DNA of 64,000 bases, taken from Heptranchias perlo (lineage: Eukaryota). The notes under the pieces are model-generated. The model was not told where the DNA came from, searched no databases, and saw only the letters and a list, made by a program, of their open reading frames with translations. This document shows, one piece after another, positions 12,241-50,330 of the stretch. Position 1 is the stretch's first letter. Each line of letters starts with the position of its first letter. The position numbers and the translations under genes were made by a program. The DNA lies in the NCBI RefSeq assembly GCF_035084215.1, contig NC_090346.1:43338001-43402000 (forward strand), in the 5' to 3' direction.

Positions 12241-15200
12241 TATCCCCCAACAACACTAAAACAGATTATCCCTCAACCAACATCACTAATACAGATTATC
12301 CTTCAACCAACATCACTAAAACAGATTATCCCCCAACCAACATCACTAAAACAGATTAACCTTCAACCAACATCACTAAAACAGATTATTCCTCAACCAA
12401 CATCACTAAAACAGATTATCCCCCAACAACACTAAAACAGATTATCCCTCAACCAACATCACTAATACAGATTATCCTTCAACCAACATCACTAAAACAG
12501 ATTATCCCCCAACCAACATCACTAAAACAGATTAACCTTCAACCAACATCACTAAAACAGATTATTCCTCAACCAACATCACTAATACAGATTATCCTTC
12601 AACCAACATCACTAATACAGATTATCCTTCAAACAAAATCACTAAAACAGATTATCCTTCAACCAACATCACTAATACAGATTATCCTTCAACCAACATC
12701 ACTAATACAGATTATCCTTCAACCAACATCACTAAAACAGATTATCCCCCAACCAACATCACTAAAACAGATTAACCTTCAACCAACATCACTAAAACAG
12801 ATTATTCCTCAACCAACATCACTAAAACAGATTATCCTTCAACCAACATCACTAAAACAGATTAACCTTCAACCAACAACACTAATACAGATCCTTCAAC
12901 CAACATCATTAAAACAGATTATCCTTCAACCAACAATACTAAAACAGATTATCCCTCAACCAACAACACTAAAACAGATTATCCCTCAACCAACATCACT
13001 AAAACAGATTATCCCTCAACCAACAACACTAAAACAGATTATCCCTCAACCAACAACACTAATACAGATCCTTCAACCAACATCATTAAAACAGATTATC
13101 CCTCAACCAACATCACTAAAACAGATTATCCCCCAACCAACATCACTAAAACAGATTATCCCTCAACCAACAACACTAAAACAGATTATCCCTCAACCAA
13201 CATCACTAAAACAGATTATCCCCCAACCAACATCACTAAAACAGATTATCCCTCAACCAACAACACTAAAACAGATTATCCTTCAACCAACATCACTAAT
13301 ACAGATTATCCTTCAACCAACATCACTAAAACAGATTATCCCCCAACCAACATCACTAAAACAGATTAACCTTCAACCAACATCACTAAAACAGATTATT
13401 CCTCAACCAACATCACTAAAACAGATTATCCTTCAACCAACATCACTAAAACAGATTAACCTTCAACCAACAACACTAATACAGATCCTTCAACCAACAT
13501 CACTAAAACAGATTATCCCCCAACCAACATCACTAAAACAGATTAACCTTCAACCAACATCACTAAAACAGATTATTCCTCAACCAACATCACTAAAACA
13601 GATTAACCTTCAACCAACATCACTAAAACAGATTAACCTTCAACCAACATCATTAAAACAGATTATCCTTCAACCAACAATACTAAAACAGATTATCCCT
13701 CAACCAAAACTAAAACAGATTATCCCTCAACCAACAACACTAATACAGATCCTTCAACCAACATCATTAAAACAGATTATCCTTCAACCAACAATACTAA
13801 AACAGATTATCCCTCAACCAAAACTAAAACAGATTATCCCTCAACCAACATCACTAAAACAGATTATCCCTCAACCAACAACACTAAAACAGATTATCCC
13901 TCAACCAACAACACTAATACAGATCCTTCAACCAACATCATTAAAACAGATTATCCTTCAACCAACAATACTAAAACAGATTACCCTTCAACCAACACTA
14001 AAACAGATTATCCTTCAACCAACATCACTAAAACAGATTATCCTTCAACCAACAATACTAAAACAGATTATCCCTCAACCAAAACTAAAACAGATTATCC
14101 CTCAACCAACAACACTAATACAGATCCTTCAACCAACATCATTAAAACAGATTATCCTTCAACCAACAATACTAAAACAGATTATCCCTCAACCAAAACT
14201 AAAACAGATTATCCCTCAACCAACATCACTAAAACAGATTATCCCTCAACCAACAACACTAAAACAGATTATCCCTCAACCAACAACACTAATACAGATC
14301 CTTCAACCAACATCATTAAAACAGATTATCCTTCAACCAACAATACTAAAACAGATTATCCCTCAACCAAAACTAAAACAGATTATCCCTCAACCAACAT
14401 CACTAAAACAGATTATCCCTCAACCAACAACACTAAAACAGATTATCCCTCAACCAACAACACTAATACAGATCCTTCAACCAACAACACTAAAACAGAT
14501 TATCCCTCAACCAACAACACTAATACAGATCCTTCAACCAACATCATTAAAACAGATTATCCTTCAACCAACAATACTAAAACAGATTACCCTTCAACCA
14601 ACACTAAAACAGATTATCCTTCAACCAACATCACTAAAACAGATTATCCTTCAACCAACAACACTAAAACAGATTATCCTTCAACCAACATCACTAATAC
14701 AGATTATCCTTCAACCAACATCACTAATACAGATTATCCTTCAACCAACATCACTAAAACAGATTATCCCCCAACCAACATCACTAAAACAGATTAACCT
14801 TCAACCAACATCACTAAAACAGATTATTCCTCAACCAACATCACTAAAACAGATTATCCTTCAACCAACATCACTAAAACAGATTAACCTTCAACCAACA
14901 ACACTAATACAGATCCTTCAACCAACATCATTAAAACAGATTATCCTTCAACCAACAATACTAAAACAGATTATCCCTCAACCAACAACACTAAAACAGA
15001 TTATCCCTCAACCAACATCACTAAAACAGATTATCCCTCAACCAACAACACTAAAACAGATTATCCCTCAACCAACAACACTAATACAGATCCTTCAACC
15101 AACATCATTAAAACAGATTATCCCTCAACCAACATCACTAAAACAGATTATCCCCCAACCAACATCACTAAAACAGATTATCCCTCAACCAACAACACTA

Positions 15201-16555
15201 AAACAGATTATCCCTCAACCAACATCACTAAAACAGATTATCCCTCAACCAACAACACTAAAACAGATTATCCTTCAACCAACATCACTAATACAGATTA
15301 TCCTTCAACCAACATCACTAAAACAGATTATCCCCCAACCAACATCACTAAAACAGATTAACCTTCAACCAACATCACTAAAACAGATTATTCCTCAACC
15401 AACATCACTAAAACAGATTATCCTTCAACCAACATCACTAAAACAGATTAACCTTCAACCAACAACACTAATACAGATCCTTCAACCAACATCACTAAAA
15501 CAGATTATCCCCCAACCAACATCACTAAAACAGATTAACCTTCAACCAACATCACTAAAACAGATTATTCCTCAACCAACATCACTAAAACAGATTAACC
15601 TTCAACCAACATCACTAAAACAGATTATCCTTCAACCAACATCACTAAAACAGATTAACCTTCAACCAACAACACTAATACAGATCCTTCAACCAACATC
15701 ATTAAAACAGATTATCCTTCAACCAACAATACTAAAACAGATTATCCCTCAACCAAAACTAAAACAGATTATCCCTCAACCAACAACACTAATACAGATC
15801 CTTCAACCAACATCATTAAAACAGATTATCCTTCAACCAACAATACTAAAACAGATTATCCCTCAACCAAAACTAAAACAGATTATCCCTCAACCAACAT
15901 CACTAAAACAGATTATCCCTCAACCAACAACACTAAAACAGATTATCCCTCAACCAACAACACTAATACAGATCCTTCAACCAACATCATTAAAACAGAT
16001 TATCCTTCAACCAACAATACTAAAACAGATTACCCTTCAACCAACACTAAAACAGATTATCCTTCAACCAACATCACTAAAACAGATTATCCTTCAACCA
16101 ACAATACTAAAACAGATTATCCCTCAACCAAAACTAAAACAGATTATCCCTCAACCAACAACACTAATACAGATCCTTCAACCAACATCATTAAAACAGA
16201 TTATCCTTCAACCAACAATACTAAAACAGATTATCCCTCAACCAAAACTAAAACAGATTATCCCTCAACCAACATCACTAAAACAGATTATCCCTCAACC
16301 AACAACACTAAAACAGATTATCCCTCAACCAACAACACTAATACAGATCCTTCAACCAACATCATTAAAACAGATTATCCTTCAACCAACAATACTAAAA
16401 CAGATTACCCTTCAACCAACACTAAAACAGATTATCCTTCAACCAACATCACTAAAACAGATTATCCTTCAACCAACAACACTAAAACAGATTATCCTTC
16501 AACCAACATCACTAAAACAGATTATCCTTCAACCAACATCATTAAAACAGATTAC
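12241..16555. repeat. 30-bp-unit minisatellite (~145-150 copies), SINE-derived, with higher-order repeat structure
   Basis: Consensus TATCC(C/T)TCAACCAACATCACTAAAACAGAT, with 26- and 27-bp deletion variants. The unit matches the body of SINE copies at ~24305, ~50810 and ~62220. Confidence 0.98.
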
Positions 16556-26655: not shown

Positions 26656-28307
26656 GTACAGTCAAATTTTGAATGCAACATACCTTCATGTGAACAGGAT
26701 GTCTTTCAGAAGCTCAGAGCACAATAGAATAAATGAATTAGATGAATTCCTGTTGAATGCAACAAAACACCAAGTGTAATCAAAGTAATTAATTTTGGAA
26801 ACACCTAAACTGAGTTGTTTTTTGTATGGAGGTGTGGAATTGACAATCTGCCAAGTTTTTAATGGTGAATCCCTTTTCCACTATATGATCATGGGTAACA
26901 TTTTTCCATGTGCTAGCTTTTGCTTGCAGGTCTAGTACTGTTCAACATAGTTCACTTTTGTCTGCAGTGCCTGAAGTTCCCACAGCTTTAGTTTTAACTG
27001 GCCCAAAGCAATGTTGTTGGCAGTTGCACTACCCTCCCAATTTACGTTTTGTCTACTTCTGACTCCGCTCACCTATTTTTGAAGCAACTTTTTTTGTCAC
27101 CAAAAAAACAGCTGAAACCGCATTGTGATGCCGCTATCGTTGTATGTATTATGGTCACTTGATTGCCACAGCCAATGAGCAGCAGTTATCATTGATCAGT
27201 GATGGATAAAATTTTTTAGTCTCATTGTTCCATGGGCATAGTACTCAAAACACAATGAACAGTGATTATCACAGAAAGGGTCAGCAGATTACCATACATC
27301 AGTCTGTCTGTACTACATACCTCTCAATTTTATACTAAATTTTATTTTCTACTTATGACCCTGGCAACAAAGTCTTGAAGGGATTTTTTTTGTAGTTCCA
27401 AAAAAATTGGTTGACAATGTTATGAGATTACTAGAAAGACAACCAATCTCGTGATCAGTACTGGCCATGAAGGTGCTGGAAACTAATGTACCGATGTTTT
27501 TATATTGAATAGATGGATATGTTGCACTTCATTCTTTACACATTTCAGTAATGTTTATATACACTTAGTTTTTGTTTTTTATAAGGGGAATGGAATTGAC
27601 AATCTACAAAATTTTAGCTGTGACTCCCTCTCCTCCTGATGATCATTGGTATATTATTTAATTACATGTTCGTTAATTTGATCCTTTTTTGAATAGACAG
27701 TTTGATTCACTAAAACTTGAAAATACCTTCTCCTTGATTCTCATTTAAGTGACCATTTATGTACTCTGCCTCTGCAGCTAGAAGGCTGTGTACATCCCCA
27801 AATTAAATCCTGTACGAGAATGATTGCTGTCTAGTCTAGTTCATTCATGTTGCTCGCAGAATCAATATGGGATGTGTTGCCGTTATTTGCTTGGTATCTT
27901 GTGAATTTGAACTGGGTGAAACATAGGAATTCAATGTCAGAATTCTTGATCTTGTGATGAGACTCCACGTTCCTCTGCCTAATTTTCTTTCCTGTTGGTC
28001 TTCCCTTAGTCTCCATTGCTAGGAGGATGAGGAATTTGTTTCAATCAAAATTGCACATGTATAGGTTTGATTATATTCTGATGTTTCATGACCGATCACT
28101 AACAAGAAAATGCAGAAGACCAACAGAATTTGCTTGTAGTTGCTGTTTTATTAATGCTAGCTGCTTCTTGATTTCTCTATTTTCAGCCTTCGTGGCAACC
28201 CTGTACTATGGGACATCTAGGGTTTCTCTTTTATTAAGAAAAAGTCAAATGTTTACAAGTGTTTGAGTCATTTTTGCCTTGTTTTGTCTTTCCCCCCACT
28301 TTTCCAG

Positions 28308-28506
28308 GGATGCTGTTGAGAAGCTGTTCCCTGATGATGTCACAAGACGACAGGAGGAGACACAGAACAACTTAAAAATCTCAAATAGCATTTTAGCTTT
28401 CCAGAAATACGGTAACGAACAATCAAGAGCTTTCAACCACTCGGGGGAATGGCGACGAGGAGGTGGCTTTTTCTCCGGAGTTCTAACTGCTTTAACCTGT
28501 GTGGCA
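28308..28506 (+). CDS. BFAR: BFAR coding exon 2 (RDAVEKLFPD...GGGFFSGVLTALTCVA)
   Basis: 199 nt, tttccag|...|gtaagt. Confidence 0.97.
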
Positions 28507-29507
28507 GTAAGTATCTGTTTAGAATCCTGTTACAACAGTGTCCAAACTCGTATCACTTTATACTCCAGCTAAATGATTGGATAATCTTTGACTTGGACTT
28601 AGAAGGTTTTCTAAATCAATGACATATATTTAAATGTGTTTTCCAACCTTTGTGTGATTACTAAAATTATTGCAGCATGCATAATGACTTTATAAATGTC
28701 TTTTTAATGAAAGATAGAAAACCGATTAATATCCCGTTTACACTAGAGGGTATCCTCCAATAGCTATCTTAAGTAAACAAAACTGTTCTCAGTGCTACAG
28801 AGGAAAATTGTTCAATGATTTTGCCAAGTAATTTTATTTACTTAACCATTTTATTCTTTTATCCGTTTTAACTGTTGTATCAAGTTTAGCAAAAAGATAA
28901 CAATGGAATGCCAGACTGGATTGCAATTACAGTACTGTAGAAATGGTCACACACTTGTCATGGATAACAAAGTCTATTTGTTATTCACTTCATTACAATT
29001 TATAAGTTACAGTGCAGCACAATTTTTTTTAAAAGAGGCTGTCATACACCAATCTGTTTAACAATTTCTCTGAGCATCTTTCTGCCCATTCAGCATCGCA
29101 ATTACTTTCACCTTTTTATAAGCAAGAGAAAGAACCTTTTTAGAGGTGGTGTTTCCATTATTCACAGTGACAGAATTTCTGATTCAGCTTGTTGCCAAAG
29201 GGTTTGTGTGCTGCAAAAACATGGGTAAGTTCTAAGTATCACAAAGCTTGAGCAACAGCACATGATGCAGTTTTCACACCTAGAGTGCGTGTCACATTGA
29301 TTGCCAAAAGTTCTTGAGCCCTGGCACCTGATGAGGTGAAAAAGACTCTAAAACATCACTGAATTGGTAATTTTCACACCTAGACAAAAACGCTTGTTAA
29401 AAGAACTTAACCCATGGATTGGCAAAAAAGGCTCAACACATTGGCTTTAGTGATTGTAAACAATTTTACAACACCAAGTTATAGTCCAGCAATTTTTATT
29501 TTAAATT

Positions 29508-29542
29508 CACAAGCTTTCGGAGGCTTCCTCCTTCGTCAGGTG
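29508..29542 (-). ncRNA. Minimal hammerhead ribozyme motif, inverted copy
   Basis: Exact reverse complement of 29816-29850. Confidence 0.72.
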
Positions 29543-29815
29543 AACGATGTGAAATGGTCACACACTTGTCATTCTGTCACTGTGAATAATGGAAACACCA
29601 CCTCTAAAAAGGTTCTTTCTCTTGCTTATAAAAAGGTGAAAGTAATTGCGATGCTGAATGGGCAGAAAGATTCTCAGAGAAATTGTTAAACAGATTGGTG
29701 TATGACAGCCTCTTTTAAAAAAAATTGTGCTGCACTGTAACTTATAAATTGTAATGAAGTGAATAACAAATATACTTTGTTATCCATGACAAGTGTGTGA
29801 CCATTTCACATCGTT

Positions 29816-29850
29816 CACCTGACGAAGGAGGAAGCCTCCGAAAGCTTGTG
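29816..29850 (+). ncRNA. Minimal hammerhead ribozyme motif (Penelope type)
   Basis: CAC-CTGACGA-A-GGAG(gaagc)CTCC-GAAA-GC-TT-GTG: intact core, 4-bp stem II, palindromic stem III (AAGCTT), stem I CAC/GTG. Confidence 0.75.
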
Positions 29851-30748
29851 AATTTAAAATAAAATTGCTGGACTATAACTTGGTGTTGTAAAATTGTTTA
29901 CAATTGTCAACCCCAGTCCATCACCGGCATCTCCACATCATGGCTTTAGTGAGGCAGTACAACTTTGAGTTCCGATGAAAGGTCATCGATTTGAAAAATT
30001 AACTGTTTCTTGCTCCACAGATGCTGAGTGTTTCTAGCAATTTTTTTGTTTTTATTTAAAGTTTCCAGCATCTGAAGTATTTTGCTTTTGAAATTAATTG
30101 TTTTATTCATTTAACAGGGGCTATCATTGGAAAAGATAGAAAAGGATTTATACATGGAGATTTTATTCTCTTAAATATTTTATTCTTTTCGGTTATTCAC
30201 TTAAGTGGGCTTGACTGTAGTGATACTTATCCCTAATTTTTCTGAATACAGTTGCTTTTCATAAGACTGTACAGATTCTGATAAGCAAATTCCCAAATTA
30301 CCACAGATTCTTTTTATGCCTGGTAATTATAAATGATATGTTGCACTTTGTCAAAAGTATACACTATGGCTGGGGTTCTCTGCTTCCACATTTGCAGCCT
30401 GCAATTTTACTATCCATTAATATAAATGGGGGGAGGGAAATCGTAGGCTGGTCAGTGCACAAGTGAAAACCTCCAGCCTAACAGTAGATAAAGTTGTTTC
30501 CCTTGATTTGTAATGGACTATACCACAATGAGTTTAATGTTTGTCTATTCCTTGCATTTTCCAGCTACTATACTATACTATTTAAAAATTGGCCTGTTTG
30601 TGGGTCCAGTGCAACATTGGATTTAAAGACCAAAACTTGTACATTCAAAATTGTGAATGTTGTTTTAAAAGGCAGGACATTAAAAGGTGATGACAACTGA
30701 ATTGCTATTACAGGGATATTAGCACTGAAGTTCTTTATCTTGTGCTAG

Positions 30749-30915
30749 GTGGTGTTTCTAGTTTATCTTTGGAGCAGAGAGACTGAACAAGATCTTCTTG
30801 TGCACAAACCTGTGACTAAATGGACTGCAAAGGAAGTGACTCTCTGGTTAGAGCAGCTGGGTCAATGGGCTACTGTTTACAAAGAGAGGTTTTTGGAGGA
30901 AGAAGTTAATGGAAG
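30749..30915 (+). CDS. BFAR: BFAR coding exon 3 (transmembrane end + start of SAM domain)
   Basis: 167 nt, gctag|...|gtgagg. Hand translation: VVFLVYLWSRETEQDLLVHKPVTKWTAKEVTLWLEQLGQWATVYKERFLEEEVNG. Confidence 0.97.
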
Positions 30916-31749
30916 GTGAGGCTTACTTTTTGAATTCAGCTGTACAAGGTCACTGCCTTTAATGTAATTGTGGACTCAGGCCGTTGGCAGTTTTTAAAGC
31001 ATCTACTCAGCACTTCTCCCAATAGTAGGAGTGAGAGGAAATTCAGGTGCAGGCTTCTGTCCTATACTTCCATAGCAAATTAGTACATTAAAAATCTGCC
31101 CTGCGTGACCTGCTCCAAACATATTGGAATCTCATTACCTGTCACACTATGTAGAGTTGAGATGCGTACATCTCATCTAACAAGAACAGTGAGCTCTTAG
31201 AATACTGAGGTCGTTGGTCTGTTCATCTCATGCTCTTGTTCGTAGTAGTAGGACGAGCAGGGGAAACTGTTCCCCTAATGAAGTCATTTCCTGCTATGCG
31301 ACAGATTCAGTTGACAAGTCTGCTGGTCATCAGCTTCTCGTATCAACGGCTTATCTATAAAGTCCTTGCTGTTTGGAACTAAATTTACCTTCAGTGTAGG
31401 TGGTTTTCAGAAGGTAATTTATCACTTAAAAGCAATTTGCCTCTTCGCTTTATGACCTGAACAGAATTGCCTGGCTGAAGGAATCCAAAATAGCATGAAT
31501 CTAAATGATTGATTATTTTAATTATTTTAAGAGGATTTGATTTTATTCTTCTTCTGAGAAGTAAAGATAACTGATTAATACAACCTTTTAACTTTAAAGG
31601 TCAGACCGTATAGTGGATAATATTGTTGAATATCAACATATTGAGACAGATTTGGCAGAAGATTTATCAAGTTACATTGAAGTGAAATCTTGAGTCTAGA
31701 TTGTTTGTTCAAAAACTTTCTACTCTTCATCCATTAATGTATTTTTTAG

Positions 31750-36935: not shown

Positions 36936-39689
36936 CTCTATTTTTGCATTTCCTTATGGTTAATCATACTGGAATAGCACATTGTTAAAGTGGTATAGCT
37001 GGTTGAATTGTGAATGTTGATCTGCAATCTTGTTTCCTTCCATTGATGAAATCGTCAGTTTCTGAAAAGTGATTAAATGAAGTTTTTTTAAAAATTAAAA
37101 TGATGCTCAAAATTGATGTGTGTGTATATATCTCAAGATATGAAAATGGAAATATACAGCAGGTCTGTCAGCACCTGAAAGAGGAAAGTGTGCTTCGTGT
37201 TTCACGGTCGGGGAAGAACGAGTCTTCGTCAGAACTTTTTTTTGTTTTTTCTTCATTTTCTGTTTATTTCCTTCCATTTAAATCTGATTAGCGAAATGTG
37301 GCCTGCTCAGAAAATGTTAGGGTTAGTAGTGATTGCTTTGCTTCAGTGAAACCTTTAAAATCTCCATGAAACCAGTGCAGAATTTTAAAAGTTTGGAGAT
37401 TTGTAGTGTCTGTTTACTTACTCATAATAGTGGTTCCCTTAAGCAGACGATTGTCCCATATGATCCAGAAGTTGTCTTTTTAATACTCTACGTTTGTAGA
37501 GGTACATGTCAAGTAGTAACAATTACCCCATTTGCAGTAATCTAGTGCGTTTAACAATTTTGCACCATGCTTCTAAATTATCCAGATATTACCACAGAAT
37601 GCAAGTTTGTTAACTGCAGCAGCTGAGTACTTCAATATTGTAATCACCATTAAAAATGCATTGGAAAATGTGGCAATTGACTGACAACCAGATCAATCAG
37701 CTGTGGTCTCATTTCAAGTATAATACTATTAGTAAAGTTTAATTATATAACCTAAACATGTTTTGAGCCAAGTTACTGATTACTAAAGGCTGCATTTTTC
37801 TTCCTGCTTGATTTACTCCCCTCCTGTGGACGTGCTGACTTCTGCTGAGCTATAAGTCCATATGATAACCACCCGCCCTCTGTTATCTCACCTAAGTGGC
37901 AGATAGTGATCCTGTTCCTTTGCATGCTTTCTAGCGAGGGCTACTGGATAGAGATCACGAGTAGAAACCTGACTGATGTTTTAATACTCTACGTCCAGCT
38001 GAGGGGAACTGAGCCAATTATAGCAATTCTACTTTCTGCGCTGGTTGAGATCAGCTAACCCAATGGAGACCAACACTGAACTTTCAACTTCCTATTCTAT
38101 ATGTTTTTGTACATTTAACCACTGACTGCTTGGGGGAACTAGGCTAGCACTAGTTTGCTATATCTTTCCTTTACAAATTGCTTGCTACTCACCACTTCTG
38201 CAAAATGGGGAGTGCTTGGAAAATCGTTGTTTTCCTGAATCTGCCCATTTTCAGCAAGAGACAGTGGACGTGGTAAAGCAGCAAAGGAAAGTAACAAAGC
38301 AGTGATACAAGTTACTTAGATGGAGATACCAGAGACTGATGGAGTCTCGTAGGTTCTGATATAATTAAGGAAAAAAGGTGGAAGCAAGAGCAATACCAAA
38401 GTATATGCACATGCCTATGCATAATTTATTAATATTGTGACATAGTATGCTTGCCAGGAAATAAAATTCTGATTTGCAGCACCCTTAGAGAGGTACCATG
38501 GAAACATTTACACAAACTTTCCTCTCTGTATAATTACAGAAAAGCTGCAGGACACAATGTTTAGTTGCCAGCAGACCCAGCATGCATGCTGCATTGGACT
38601 GCATTCCTAGAAGGACGTATGTGCACTCACTAGAGTTGACTATGTGCTCTGCCAATTTGTAAGACCCAAATGTCTAATGTCCTCTTCCAGGAAAATCACT
38701 GCAAGTGAACTTGCACAAATAGGGGACCATCACAGTTGCAGCAGCTGGCCCTCAGTATACTTGACCTCAGGTCCTTGGAGGGAGTAGAAAGGGAGTGTTT
38801 GGAGGACTGCTTCCTCCTGCTCCTCCAACAACTAAACTTTTTTTCCCCTTTCATTGTTATTCTTGTTAATTCTCTCACTCAGTAGCACAGGGGCATGCAT
38901 AGTAGACTGTATATTAGCATCATAGCTCTGTTCCAAAGCATTTCATCCAGAAACCACAGTAACATCTTCTTTTCTCCTATAGGCTCTTCCCAAAGTGAGG
39001 TGGAACCAGCTGATGACAGGAATAAAATGCTGTATAGCATGTTGTCATGCACTCCATCTACTACAAACACCATCACAGATTAAAACACCCCAGGACGTTT
39101 AAATAATGAGTTTAAGGATGGAGGACCAGGTGAAACACAATGACAAAGTAGGAGGAGTGAGTGTAGGGGGCAGAACAGCGACCAGCAGCCTTGACTTTAA
39201 GCTGGAGGTGTTCTTCATAAAATACAAGTTCTTTCCCTTTATTGTGGCATGGGTAAAGAGGGATTGGTATCCTCCTGGGTCTACCTTCACAAGATCGATA
39301 ACCAAAAAGTCTTCATGTTTAGTTGCATAAATGGCATTGTTTTCACTAAACGAAACCGATTCAGGAACTAAATATCAACCCTTCTTCCAAAAATACACAA
39401 ATTTAAATTAAATTGTGAATGCTGACCTTGTTTTAATTTCTGCAGACCAATCCAATGGATTAGTTATATGTCTGTTTGCTATGGATGAGGTTTAGTGCTG
39501 CAGGAGGAGTGCATCCAAACGACGTGAGTTTCAGTATGGTGACATCGTTATTATAACTTCACAAGGAGGCTGATGCTGAATGGCAGTGTAGCTTTCCTTT
39601 AGTTCTCTTTTTTTGTCGGATATGAATTGCAATGCACAGTAATTGGGGTAGGTGACTCTGAAGAATATTATTGTGAAGAAAGAAAATAC

Positions 39690-44135: not shown

Positions 44136-44436
44136 ACCACAAGGGGACATAGATTCAAGGTAAAAGGCGGGAGGTTTAGAGGGGATTTGAGAAAGAACTT
44201 TTTCACCCAGAGGGTGGTTGGAGTCTGGAACTCACTGCCTGAAAGGGTTGTGGAGGCAGGAACCCTCACAACATTCAAGAAGCATTTGGATGAGCACTTG
44301 AAATGCCATAGCATACAAGGCTACGGACCAAATGCTGGAATATGGGATTAGAGTGGACAGGGCTGATGGCCTGCGCGGACACGATGGGCCGAAGGGCCTC
44401 TATCCGTGCTGTATAACTCTATGACTATGACTCTAT
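44136..44436 (+). mobile_element. CR1 LINE 3' end
   Basis: TRGHRFKVKGGRFRGDLRKNFFTQRVVGVWNSLP; (ctctatga) tail. Confidence 0.9.
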
Positions 44437-48329: not shown

Positions 48330-50330
48330 ATTTAGTCGAGAGAAGTGGCACTGAGCACCAGGGGAGGAGCCCTGGCTGTCAGTATAAAAGTGAGAGCCGA
48401 GTCGAGATCAATGGCGCTGAGCACCAGGGGAGGAGCCCTTTCCCCATTTACTAAGAACAGAGAGTGACATCACTGAACGGAGGAGGAGCAGCTCTGAGAC
48501 CTGGAATGAAAGGGTAGATTAATTGGGGTAAGTAAACAGTAAGTAAATGAATAATAGAGTAAAGGGAGTTTAGAAAAAAAATTCCTAAATATAATGGATG
48601 GGCAGCTGAGACCCAGTGTCTGCAATTCCTGCGCCATGTGGGAACTTCAGGATGCTTCATGTGTCCTGGAGGGCCACGTGTACAAGAAATGCCTCCAGTT
48701 GCTCAAGCTCAAGTTGAGGGTTTGAATTTGAGGGGTGGCTGGAGGTTTCCTGGATCACTAGTGCTGATGGCCGGCGCGGACACGATGGGCCGAAGGGCCT
48801 CTATCCGTGCTGTATGACTCTATGTGATCACTCTGCAGCCACAAAGAGTTCAGGATAGCAAATGGGTGGCCATCCGAAAGGGTAGGAAGAGGCAACGTAA
48901 GGGGAACAGCCAGAAGTCGTGGTCCATGTGGATACCAACGACATAGAAAAGGGATGAGGTCCTGCGGTCAGAGTATCAGGAGCTAGGGAGGAAGTTAAAA
49001 AGCAGGACCTCAAAGGTAGTAACCTCTGGATTACTCCCAGTACCACGTGCTAGTGAGTACAGAAATAGGAAGATAAGGCAAGTTAATGTGTGGCTAGAGA
49101 CATGCTGCAAGAGGGAGGGCTTCAGATTCTTGGGGCATTGGGACCAGTTCTGGGGCAGGAGGGACCTCCAAGACAGATGGGTTGCACCTCAACAGAGCTG
49201 GGACTGATGTCCTTGTGGGGAGGTTCACTAGTGCTGTGGGGGAGGATTTAAACTAATGTGGCAGGGGGATGGGCACCAGGATGTAGCATTAGAAAGGAGA
49301 AACAAGGTGCACAAAAGATTGGGAGACATAAATAGCACAGTATTAGGTGGGATCAGACCAACATAGAATACAAGAAGGTCTAAGGTTTACAGTGCATATG
49401 TGTAAATGCACAAAGCAGGTAAACAAAATTGGTGAGCTGTAGGTGCAAATAGCCACATGGGAATATGATGTAGTGGTGAAAATGCAGACCTTACTCTCAA
49501 AAGGGCAGGATTGGGTACTAAATATTCCTGGATACAAGGTGTTCAGGAAAGAAAGGGGGGGGGGGGTAGTATTGATTAAGGAGAATATTGCAGGCCTGGA
49601 GAGAGAGGATGTCCTTGAGGTGTCAAGGACAGAATCTAATTGGTTTGAGTTAAGAAACGAGGTGCCATTACACTATTGGTTGGTGGCCTATAGAATATAC
49701 CGAGTGAGAAGGATATAGAGAAGCAAATTTGCAAGGAAATTAAAGAGGTGCAAGAACTATAGCATTGTGATAATGGGGGACTTTAATTATCCTAATATAG
49801 ACAGGGATAGTAATAATGTAAAGGGCAAAGAGGGGGAGGAATTTCTGAAGTGTGTTCAGGAGAAATTGATTGGTATGTTTCCAGCCCATTGAAGAAGGAG
49901 GCATTGCTTGACCTAGTTCTGGGGAATGAAGTGGAGCAAGTACCACAGAATATTTAGGGAACAGTGATCATAGTATCATAAGGTTTAGATTTAGTTATGG
50001 AAAAAGACAAGGAGCAATCTAGAGTAAAAATACTTAATTGGAGGAGGGCCAATTTCAGTGGGTTGAGAATGAATCTGGCTTGGGTAAATTGGAATCAAAG
50101 GTTGGCAGGCAAAACTGTAATTAAACAATGGGCAGCCTTTAAAGAGATGATGGTTCGGGTACAGTCTAGGTACATTCCTACGAGGGGGAAAGGTAGGGAA
50201 ACCAAATCCAGAGCCAATTGCAGGGCTACGAGGAAAGAGTGGGGGAATGGGACTAACTGGATTGCTCTTACAAAGAGCTGGCACGGGCCAAATGGCTTCC
50301 TTCTGTGCTGTAACCATTCTATGATAGGAA
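48330..50330 (+). mobile_element. Decayed CR1 LINE with 5' UTR, ORF1 (zinc finger + SGNH esterase) and ORF2 endonuclease; RT region missing
   Basis: CNSCAMWE..CKKC; VVVHVDTNDI; LHLNRAG; LNIPGYKVFRK..GGGV; IMGDFNYPNID; LDLVLGNE; SDH. Joined directly to a CR1 3' UTR at ~50218. Confidence 0.85.

Follow-up and report, generated by a model that had tools for sequence, protein, structure and literature searches.

A putative Penelope-like insertion in a shark BFAR intron, with inverted arms joined by DNA copied from the landing site

Introduction

Insertions of EN+ Penelope-like elements (PLEs) canonically consist of an inverted, 5'-truncated pLTR, a one-sided tail of 30-40 bp and a TSD (PMC8557442, PMC3846280), and PLE hammerhead ribozymes have an extra base between positions 9 and 10.1, a G10.1-C11.1 pair and a palindromic helix III/loop 3 (PMC4209133). 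A purified PLE protein was shown to cut and extend both strands, with reverse transcription starting at two RNA sites that lie one tail length apart; how PLEs form their inverted ends and complete integration is still an open question, the steps after reverse transcription having been left unvalidated in that study (PMC11167929). Host DNA has been found captured between the pLTRs of Adineta Pen1 and Pen3a, where the available text does not describe it as a copy of the landing-site flank, and in one Pen2a lineage an inverted copy (304 bp) of the lineage's own internal insert lies upstream of the pLTR (PMC3846280).

Locally templated DNA has been described for other retroelements. For L1, 22 templated insertions were reported, typically of less than 250 bp and with a template no more than 15 bp from the site (bioRxiv 10.1101/2024.08.27.596794); another study described three insertions whose flanks had been inverted, three that contained locally templated DNA, and twin priming, in which an intact TSD fits the use of the second primer ahead of end processing (PMC11702581). 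At the 5' junctions of R2, the 3' end of the cDNA can snap back and prime on its own cDNA or on nearby target DNA (PMC11371274). Zebrafish LINEs carry several extra nucleotides derived from the flank at the element-to-flank joint, for which a stable synapsis ahead of joining, dependent on host factors, was proposed (PMC4245944). In the SD-MMEJ model snap-back synthesis makes new microhomology, and the primer distances in the corresponding assay were mostly 15 bp or less and up to 30 bp (PMC5728401). Pol theta extends stem-loops from two terminal base pairs and slips by +1 in runs (PMC11292364). Patches templated by flanking DNA are thereby already known from retrotransposon joints; a Penelope arm-to-arm joint with two such patches, as described here, is a new setting for them. 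Literature searches, judged by title and the start of the abstract, found no description of landing-site copies in a Penelope arm-to-arm joint, although supplementary figures of the L1 studies may hold closer precedents.

The insertion was analysed within the window, which is the whole stretch of 64,000 nucleotides of Heptranchias perlo DNA. Support from reads was taken from the contigs of four DNA runs (X1-X4), all from one sample; since these runs may be the assembly's own source, they test for mis-assembly and do not represent an independent population.

Results

As the preliminary description had proposed, the structure lies in an intron of BFAR. The gene is on the + strand; its RING exon had a best match of 92% to a shark BFAR-like protein, the neighbouring BFAR exons were mapped by tblastn to both sides of the insertion (P0001/P0004), and Pfam recognised the RING exon alone, one of six pieces. 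The insert is flanked by a perfect 12-bp direct repeat, the presumed TSD, TGGCTTTAGTGA, which was found exactly twice in the window and for which the chance of a match at a fixed place is 7e-8. The suggestion that a single TSD-bounded event had taken place was supported. The features are listed in Table 1.

Table 1. Features of the insertion and of its host intron, in positions of the window (X1-X4 denote the sequencing runs).
Feature	Position	Strand	Basis or remarks
BFAR intron, containing the whole structure	28507..30748	+	GT donor 28507, AG acceptor 30747-48
BFAR exons bracketing the insertion	28308-28506 and 30749-30915	+	tblastn
Host source segment, copied	28940..29176	+	begins with GAAA; AGAAAT 28939-44 and ATTTCT 29175-80 bracket the segment
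TSD, left copy	29442..29453	+	flank contigs unbroken through the TSD to 29474, 4/4 runs
Tail-less inverted element arm	29453..29554	-	reverse complement of 29804-29904, 0 substitutions, +1 T
18-nt direct copy of host 28944-28961	29555..29572	+	in X2 contig 29543-29600
233-nt inverted copy of host 28944-29176	29571..29803	-	237 nt including the common GAAA/TTTC; overlaps the 18-nt piece by 2 bp (AT)
Sense element segment (pseudo-LTR end), putative first cDNA template	29804..29940	+	bins 29779-29952 at a depth of 1e6; other copies have fold-back joints that reach 29554/29804
Predicted minimal PLE-type hammerhead	29814..29853	+	CUGACGA, extra A, G-C closed stem II, GAAA, palindromic AAGCUU, 5-bp stem I
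One-sided tail, 36 nt	29905..29940	+	41 nt if 29941-45 is counted as element
TSD, right copy	29941..29952	+	first 5 bases common to many other copies; X1 contig 29920-30091 bridges

Both inverted copies that had been described were reproduced by alignment. Positions 29571-29807 matched the reverse complement of 28940-29176 over 237 nt with two mismatches (blastn, E 2e-117), at 28974 and 29075, where the source has C and the copy has A. The two differences (28974/29075 versus 29773/29672) are the same transversion, C/A, or G/T on the other strand. The source, which had been placed about 270 bp upstream, was measured to end 265 bp short of the TSD (277 bp short of the insert), and self-comparison of the 64-kb window gave no further match to it beyond its inverted copy; the identity of the captured DNA as unique, local BFAR intron is supported. 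The left arm (29453-29572) matched the reverse complement of 29786-29904 over 120 columns with no substitutions and one extra T (E 6e-54), which sits in the run at 29493-97. Outside a tandem array, the 237-nt and 120-column pairs were the sole near-identical long self-matches in the window. This array (12247-16554) has a 30-bp unit in about 147 copies with 88% matches and a strong GC skew. A shorter direct match, of 65 bp and 95%, was present between 44359-44423 and 48760-48824, a closer pair than the remaining copies of this dispersed repeat within the window (73-84%).

The Penelope-type end had been placed at 29808-29940. Its type was upheld by the hammerhead core, inverted arm, tail, TSD and copy number, but the element edge was corrected from 29808/29550 to 29804/29554. 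The GAAA at 28940-43 of the host is identical to the GAAA at 29551-54 of the element (TTTC at 29804-07), a 4-bp microhomology with an expectation of 0.5% by composition; both arms stop at the identical element base, and the four junction bases belong to element and host. The non-element filler amounts to 249 nt, made up of 18 direct and 233 inverted nucleotides with AT common to both, and the joints have microhomologies of 4 bp (GAAA), 2 bp (AT) and 1 bp (A). Apparently no element bases were lost at the centre of the insert. No ORF was found in the insert, and the element copy is a short, dead Penelope-type stub. Only the 18-nt piece must be a fold-back or a second copy, and about 18-22 nt at most need fold-back. 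About 100 of the 120 left-arm bases are probably a second target-primed cDNA, because the left arm lacks the 36-nt tail, like an ordinary Penelope inverted arm. The earlier reading of the entire 120-bp arm as a cDNA fold-back is therefore not required: only the 18 nt show that the junction was copied, and about 100 bp have the canonical tail-less arm form.

Assignment of the element to the PLEs is putative and draws on non-coding features. A pattern scan and fold gave a hammerhead-like core with PLE traits (Table 1), mirrored at 29505-29544; a search of Rfam with 28000-31000 at E up to 5 gave four matches (E 1-3.8), all below gathering scores and none of them a hammerhead. An inverted 5'-truncated arm was present on the 5' side of the insert (29453-29554), and the one-sided 36-nt tail was within the 30-40 bp expected of an EN+ Penelope-like insertion. 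The family is dispersed and multi-copy, with 43-61 contigs per listed position that have unrelated flanks at the tail end. The locus resembles the canonical EN+ PLE unit in its one-sided tail, apparent 12-bp TSD, hammerhead motif and inverted arm, which is 36 nt shorter than the sense arm; unlike that unit (Pen2a_Av), it has no ORF, and its arms are parted by 249 nt whose template lies 265-502 bp upstream of the left TSD copy.

The first five TSD bases (29941-45) are common to many other copies, and an ATG lies at 29940-42. In X2-X4, 44-49 contigs per run matched through 29945 and then continued into unrelated flanks (among the best 24 of 1,032 loose ends). These common bases suggest either pairing of the primer with the RNA or a target preference; initiation was non-homologous in the anole element (PMC11167929), whereas here the primer may have paired with the RNA. 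A 22-nt stretch of the tail matched one locus in metagenome contigs and one in prokaryote genomes, and these matches (22-23 nt, GC-rich at 58% and 67%) were rejected as chance; the same stretch gave 0 loci in viral contigs.

Hammerhead-like cores were also observed elsewhere in the window. Perfect 14-bp direct repeats, TTTTCACACCTAGA (29271-29384), enclose an insert of 86 bp (29285-29370) with a degenerate hammerhead-like core; the bins across 29271-29384 had a depth about 15-40-fold over the flank. This insert lies 57 bp from the Penelope TSD and probably represents an older, short mobile insertion. At 37033-37278, a 12-bp direct repeat (37033, 37267) surrounds about 220 bp, with hammerhead-like cores of the form CTGACGA...GAAA on the minus strand at 37232 and 37058, possibly representing a second family of short ribozyme-bearing insertions.

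The central joint was carried by a contig from X2 (29543-29600, 58 nt, 0 differences) at a depth of 12.3, compared to 10.7-12 in the flank; this contig has 29 letters on each side, below the 31-letter bridging rule (among the best 16 of 16,431 pieces). Filler contigs had about 1.5-2 times the depth of the flank (17.9 and 21.2 in X2; 24.7 and 30.6 in X3 versus 15.5-16.3) and broke at 29571 and 29807 (depths and breaks among the best 32 of 86,957 pieces), and the two copy-specific bases were both present in contigs covering 29634-29807 in X2 and X4. In the element bins the summed depth was 1e5-1e6, and it dropped from 574,182 to 150 at the element edge. Because the host segment had about twice the single-copy depth and a contig held the central joint, it is neither a mis-assembly nor element sequence, in agreement with the preliminary description on both points.

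The left flank, TSD and arm were continuous in contigs of 4/4 runs, and an empty allele or empty-site joint was not present among the joints listed (best 15 of 446; four runs, one sample); the sample therefore looks homozygous for the insertion. X1 differed from X2-X4 at 28676, 29423 and 30527, indicating two haplotypes, and the insertion was found in both sets of runs. Since an X1 contig with the 29423 variant enters the insert, we infer that the insertion predates the split of the two haplotypes. It had been called young, which holds in that it is recent enough for identical arms; it is, however, not segregating here and is present in the runs of both haplotypes.

Other copies of the family have arms that fold back and reach 29554 and 29804 (12-23 contigs per run, among the joints listed), and 12-13 contigs per run continue past 29554 with different letters, which identifies the GAAA at 29551-54 as element sequence. 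These copies have four T at 29493 and no extra T (33 contigs in X1, 45 in X2), so the extra T arose in the left arm. Their fold-back zone is 29804-29824 (best 15 of 446 joints), and the filler therefore sits at the family's arm-joining place; since a fold-back contig can be read in either direction, such joints are equally compatible with self-copying and with two cDNAs. Ten X1 contigs with long unrelated flanks began at 29451, at most 2 nt from the arm start, and were absent from the X2 listing; a sharp family-wide pile-up of arm starts at 29453-54 was not seen among the best 12 of 88 loose ends. A lone 'other letter' in 12 listed element contigs was left out of the analysis, because in high-copy repeats the long contigs are those that carry the rare variant.

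Discussion

We consider that there is about an even chance that the landing site held two cDNA arms whose 3' ends were identical, and that these were bridged by a long local copy, followed by a short fold-back. The filler is likely to have been made during integration, by DNA synthesis of a repair type that connected the two cDNA ends; the order of the steps, the strand and the polymerase are what we infer from the arrangement. A staggered 12-bp cut would have provided two primers. Copying of the RNA would have started at about 29940 on the bottom strand and at 29904 on the top strand, and would have stopped at 29804 on both. Two identical 3' ends (GAAA) would have resulted, unable to pair with each other, and the upstream flank would then have been copied once, over 233 nt. 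In the slightly favoured sub-route, the top-strand cDNA would snap back on its own resected flank at TTTC 29176-79, run to 28940 and anneal there to the first cDNA through GAAA/TTTC; in the other, the first cDNA would invade at 28940. The bottom strand at 29176 would fold back by 2 bp (AT), copy 18 nt plus GAAA and anneal to the top-strand cDNA. In both sub-routes host capture would precede the short fold-back; the original claim that capture must have come first is thus kept in the favoured route, and does not hold in every route.

This two-cDNA reading is supported by the fit of the arm, the 36-nt tail and the TSD to the canonical PLE unit, by the position of the filler in the zone where other copies fold back, by the GAAA that belongs to element and host alike, by the ability of Pol theta to extend stem-loops from two base pairs and the snap-back synthesis of the SD-MMEJ model, and by the intact TSD, which fits use of a second primer ahead of end processing; since PLE protein uses two RNA sites one tail apart, the left arm is most simply a second, top-strand-primed cDNA. 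The ten X1 contigs that start at 29451, near the arm start, hint in the same direction. Against this reading, a copy of 233 nt at 265 bp from the cut exceeds the SD-MMEJ primer distances and the usual 15 bp of L1, the +1 T in the element part of the left arm suits DNA-templated copying by a slippage-prone polymerase, and the family's arm starts do not pile up sharply; the favoured sub-route would also require that a 17-nt loop became fixed. In favour of the snap-back, the end of the long copy is in register with the TTTC site, which would be the case for 4.4% of end positions by chance and was noticed post hoc. Host 29152-29175 is similar to the first 23 bases of the element and can pair with the end of the cDNA (19/25 columns, -11.3 kcal/mol); such pairing was found in 0.4% of 44,745 control windows, and a site of this kind was held by 11.6% of 285 control 500-nt segments. 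A stronger pairing site (29088-29114) was copied through, and the pairing is no more than a faint hint. A slipped 6/7 microhomology through the family's next bases, in a consensus of low agreement (0.53-0.54), is possible. One locus cannot settle either order or strand.

Several known systems share parts of this structure. As in L1 templated insertions and twin priming, nearby genomic DNA of less than 250 bp (here 237 bp) was duplicated into the insert, the TSD was kept, the joint has microhomology and the second primer would come from the other cut end; unlike L1, there is no poly(A), the template lies 265 bp from the TSD rather than within 15 bp, and the same element bases are fully present in both arms. 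The R2 snap-back junctions are similar in that a cDNA 3' end primes on its own cDNA or on nearby target DNA, but that case was engineered in human rDNA and had no second, tail-less arm, whereas here both kinds of switch would occur together. The microhomologies of 1-4 bp, the inverted and direct flank pieces, the apparent 2-bp stem-loop priming and the +1 slip are like the products of SD-MMEJ and Pol theta; unlike in the SD-MMEJ plasmid assay, the long tract is 233 nt and 265 bp away, and the 18-nt piece fits in length only. Zebrafish LINE fillers are likewise junction DNA copied from the flank, but here the filler is 249 nt and lies at the arm-to-arm joint.

The alternative with the fewest molecules, which is the route of the preliminary description and which we regard as unlikely, is that one strand did everything: the first cDNA would have left the RNA at 28940 (GAAA) for the bottom strand of the host, extended as far as 29176, turned back on AT to copy 118 nt of its own sequence, and joined the left flank through 1 bp. 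The arms end at the same element base with 0 substitutions in 101, the homopolymer +1 T fits a slippage-prone DNA polymerase, and snap-back of R2 cDNA onto itself or nearby target DNA has been published (PMC11371274). Such a strand, however, has to stop precisely one tail length short of the end, a position for which two-site priming accounts with no added assumption; it must also invade 514 bp from the cut on 4 bp of homology, at the poorest-matching of the six local GAAA sites scored, and it leaves the TTTC at 29176 as a coincidence. It is very improbable, in our judgement, that both cDNA ends used the same GAAA independently and the junction was never copied. The short piece would then have come first, the top-strand cDNA taking 18 nt at 28940-61 of the bottom strand of the host, close to the resection end, before snapping back at 29176 and copying to 28940 to meet the first cDNA. 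With identical cDNA ends and only six GAAA sites on the top strand of the upstream 1 kb, double use of one site is not far-fetched, but this route needs that reuse as well as a template end at about 28961, of which no sign is seen.

Palindromes are fragile, and it is conceivable, if decidedly unlikely, that a plain, perfect fold-back stub was inserted first and that its centre broke later and was filled with local DNA by host repair. Filler-less fold-backs of the family are abundant among the joints listed, and the broken ends would equal the same two GAAA ends. Against a later event, the filler differs from its source at 2/237 and so shows no greater identity than the arms show to each other (0 substitutions, 1 indel in 102); the filler joint, moreover, is at full flank depth (12.3 in X2), and the centre seems to have lost no element bases. 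A jump of the top-strand-primed reverse transcriptase from element RNA to nascent BFAR pre-mRNA, with copying of 237 nt of intron, is improbable. The orientation would fit, BFAR being transcribed on the + strand and the long copy being its reverse complement on the top strand, and RNA-to-RNA template switches have been reported for L1 (PMC11702581); yet the 18-nt direct piece needs a further, DNA-templated step, the source is right beside the cut and not elsewhere in the gene, and the first (bottom-strand) cDNA cannot have used BFAR RNA. That the structure is an assembly artefact, or that the 237 bp are part of the element's consensus, is scarcely credible. Such a reading could appeal to the use of contigs alone, to the shortness of the joint contig and to the possible origin of the assembly from the same runs; against it stand the about twofold filler depth with its breaks, the two copy-specific bases, the unique joint contig at single-copy depth and the fall in summed depth at the element end.

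A filler whose template is the landing site itself shows that the two arms were joined on the chromosome at this locus and that their joint was not brought along from a source element; the microhomologies at this joint can be read. The preliminary description had proposed local duplication driven by the element; host repair synthesis fits at least as well. More broadly, and tentatively, since we doubt rather than expect that it will prove general, Penelope integration may routinely leave two identical cDNA 3' ends that cannot pair, with every inverted-arm insertion closed head to head by host synthesis-dependent end joining. If this were true, Penelope fillers would be a genome-wide record of the closing step, with at least 514 nt of flank exposed at this locus, and the elements would steadily generate inverted duplications of local DNA, and long double-stranded RNA within introns, in sharks. 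The value of the locus is that a genome-wide count of fillers could discriminate between models of Penelope integration.

The single locus is a repair scar with no sign of function. The predicted fold of 28930-29960 had an energy of -547 kcal/mol, with 235 base pairs formed by the 237-bp stem, whereas the 120-bp stem did not form. In BFAR pre-mRNA, the 235-bp stem is predicted to bury the hammerhead's normal partner arm, and it may be a substrate for RNA editing. The insert has no GTRAG donor; it contains one pyrimidine-rich AG, at 29539.
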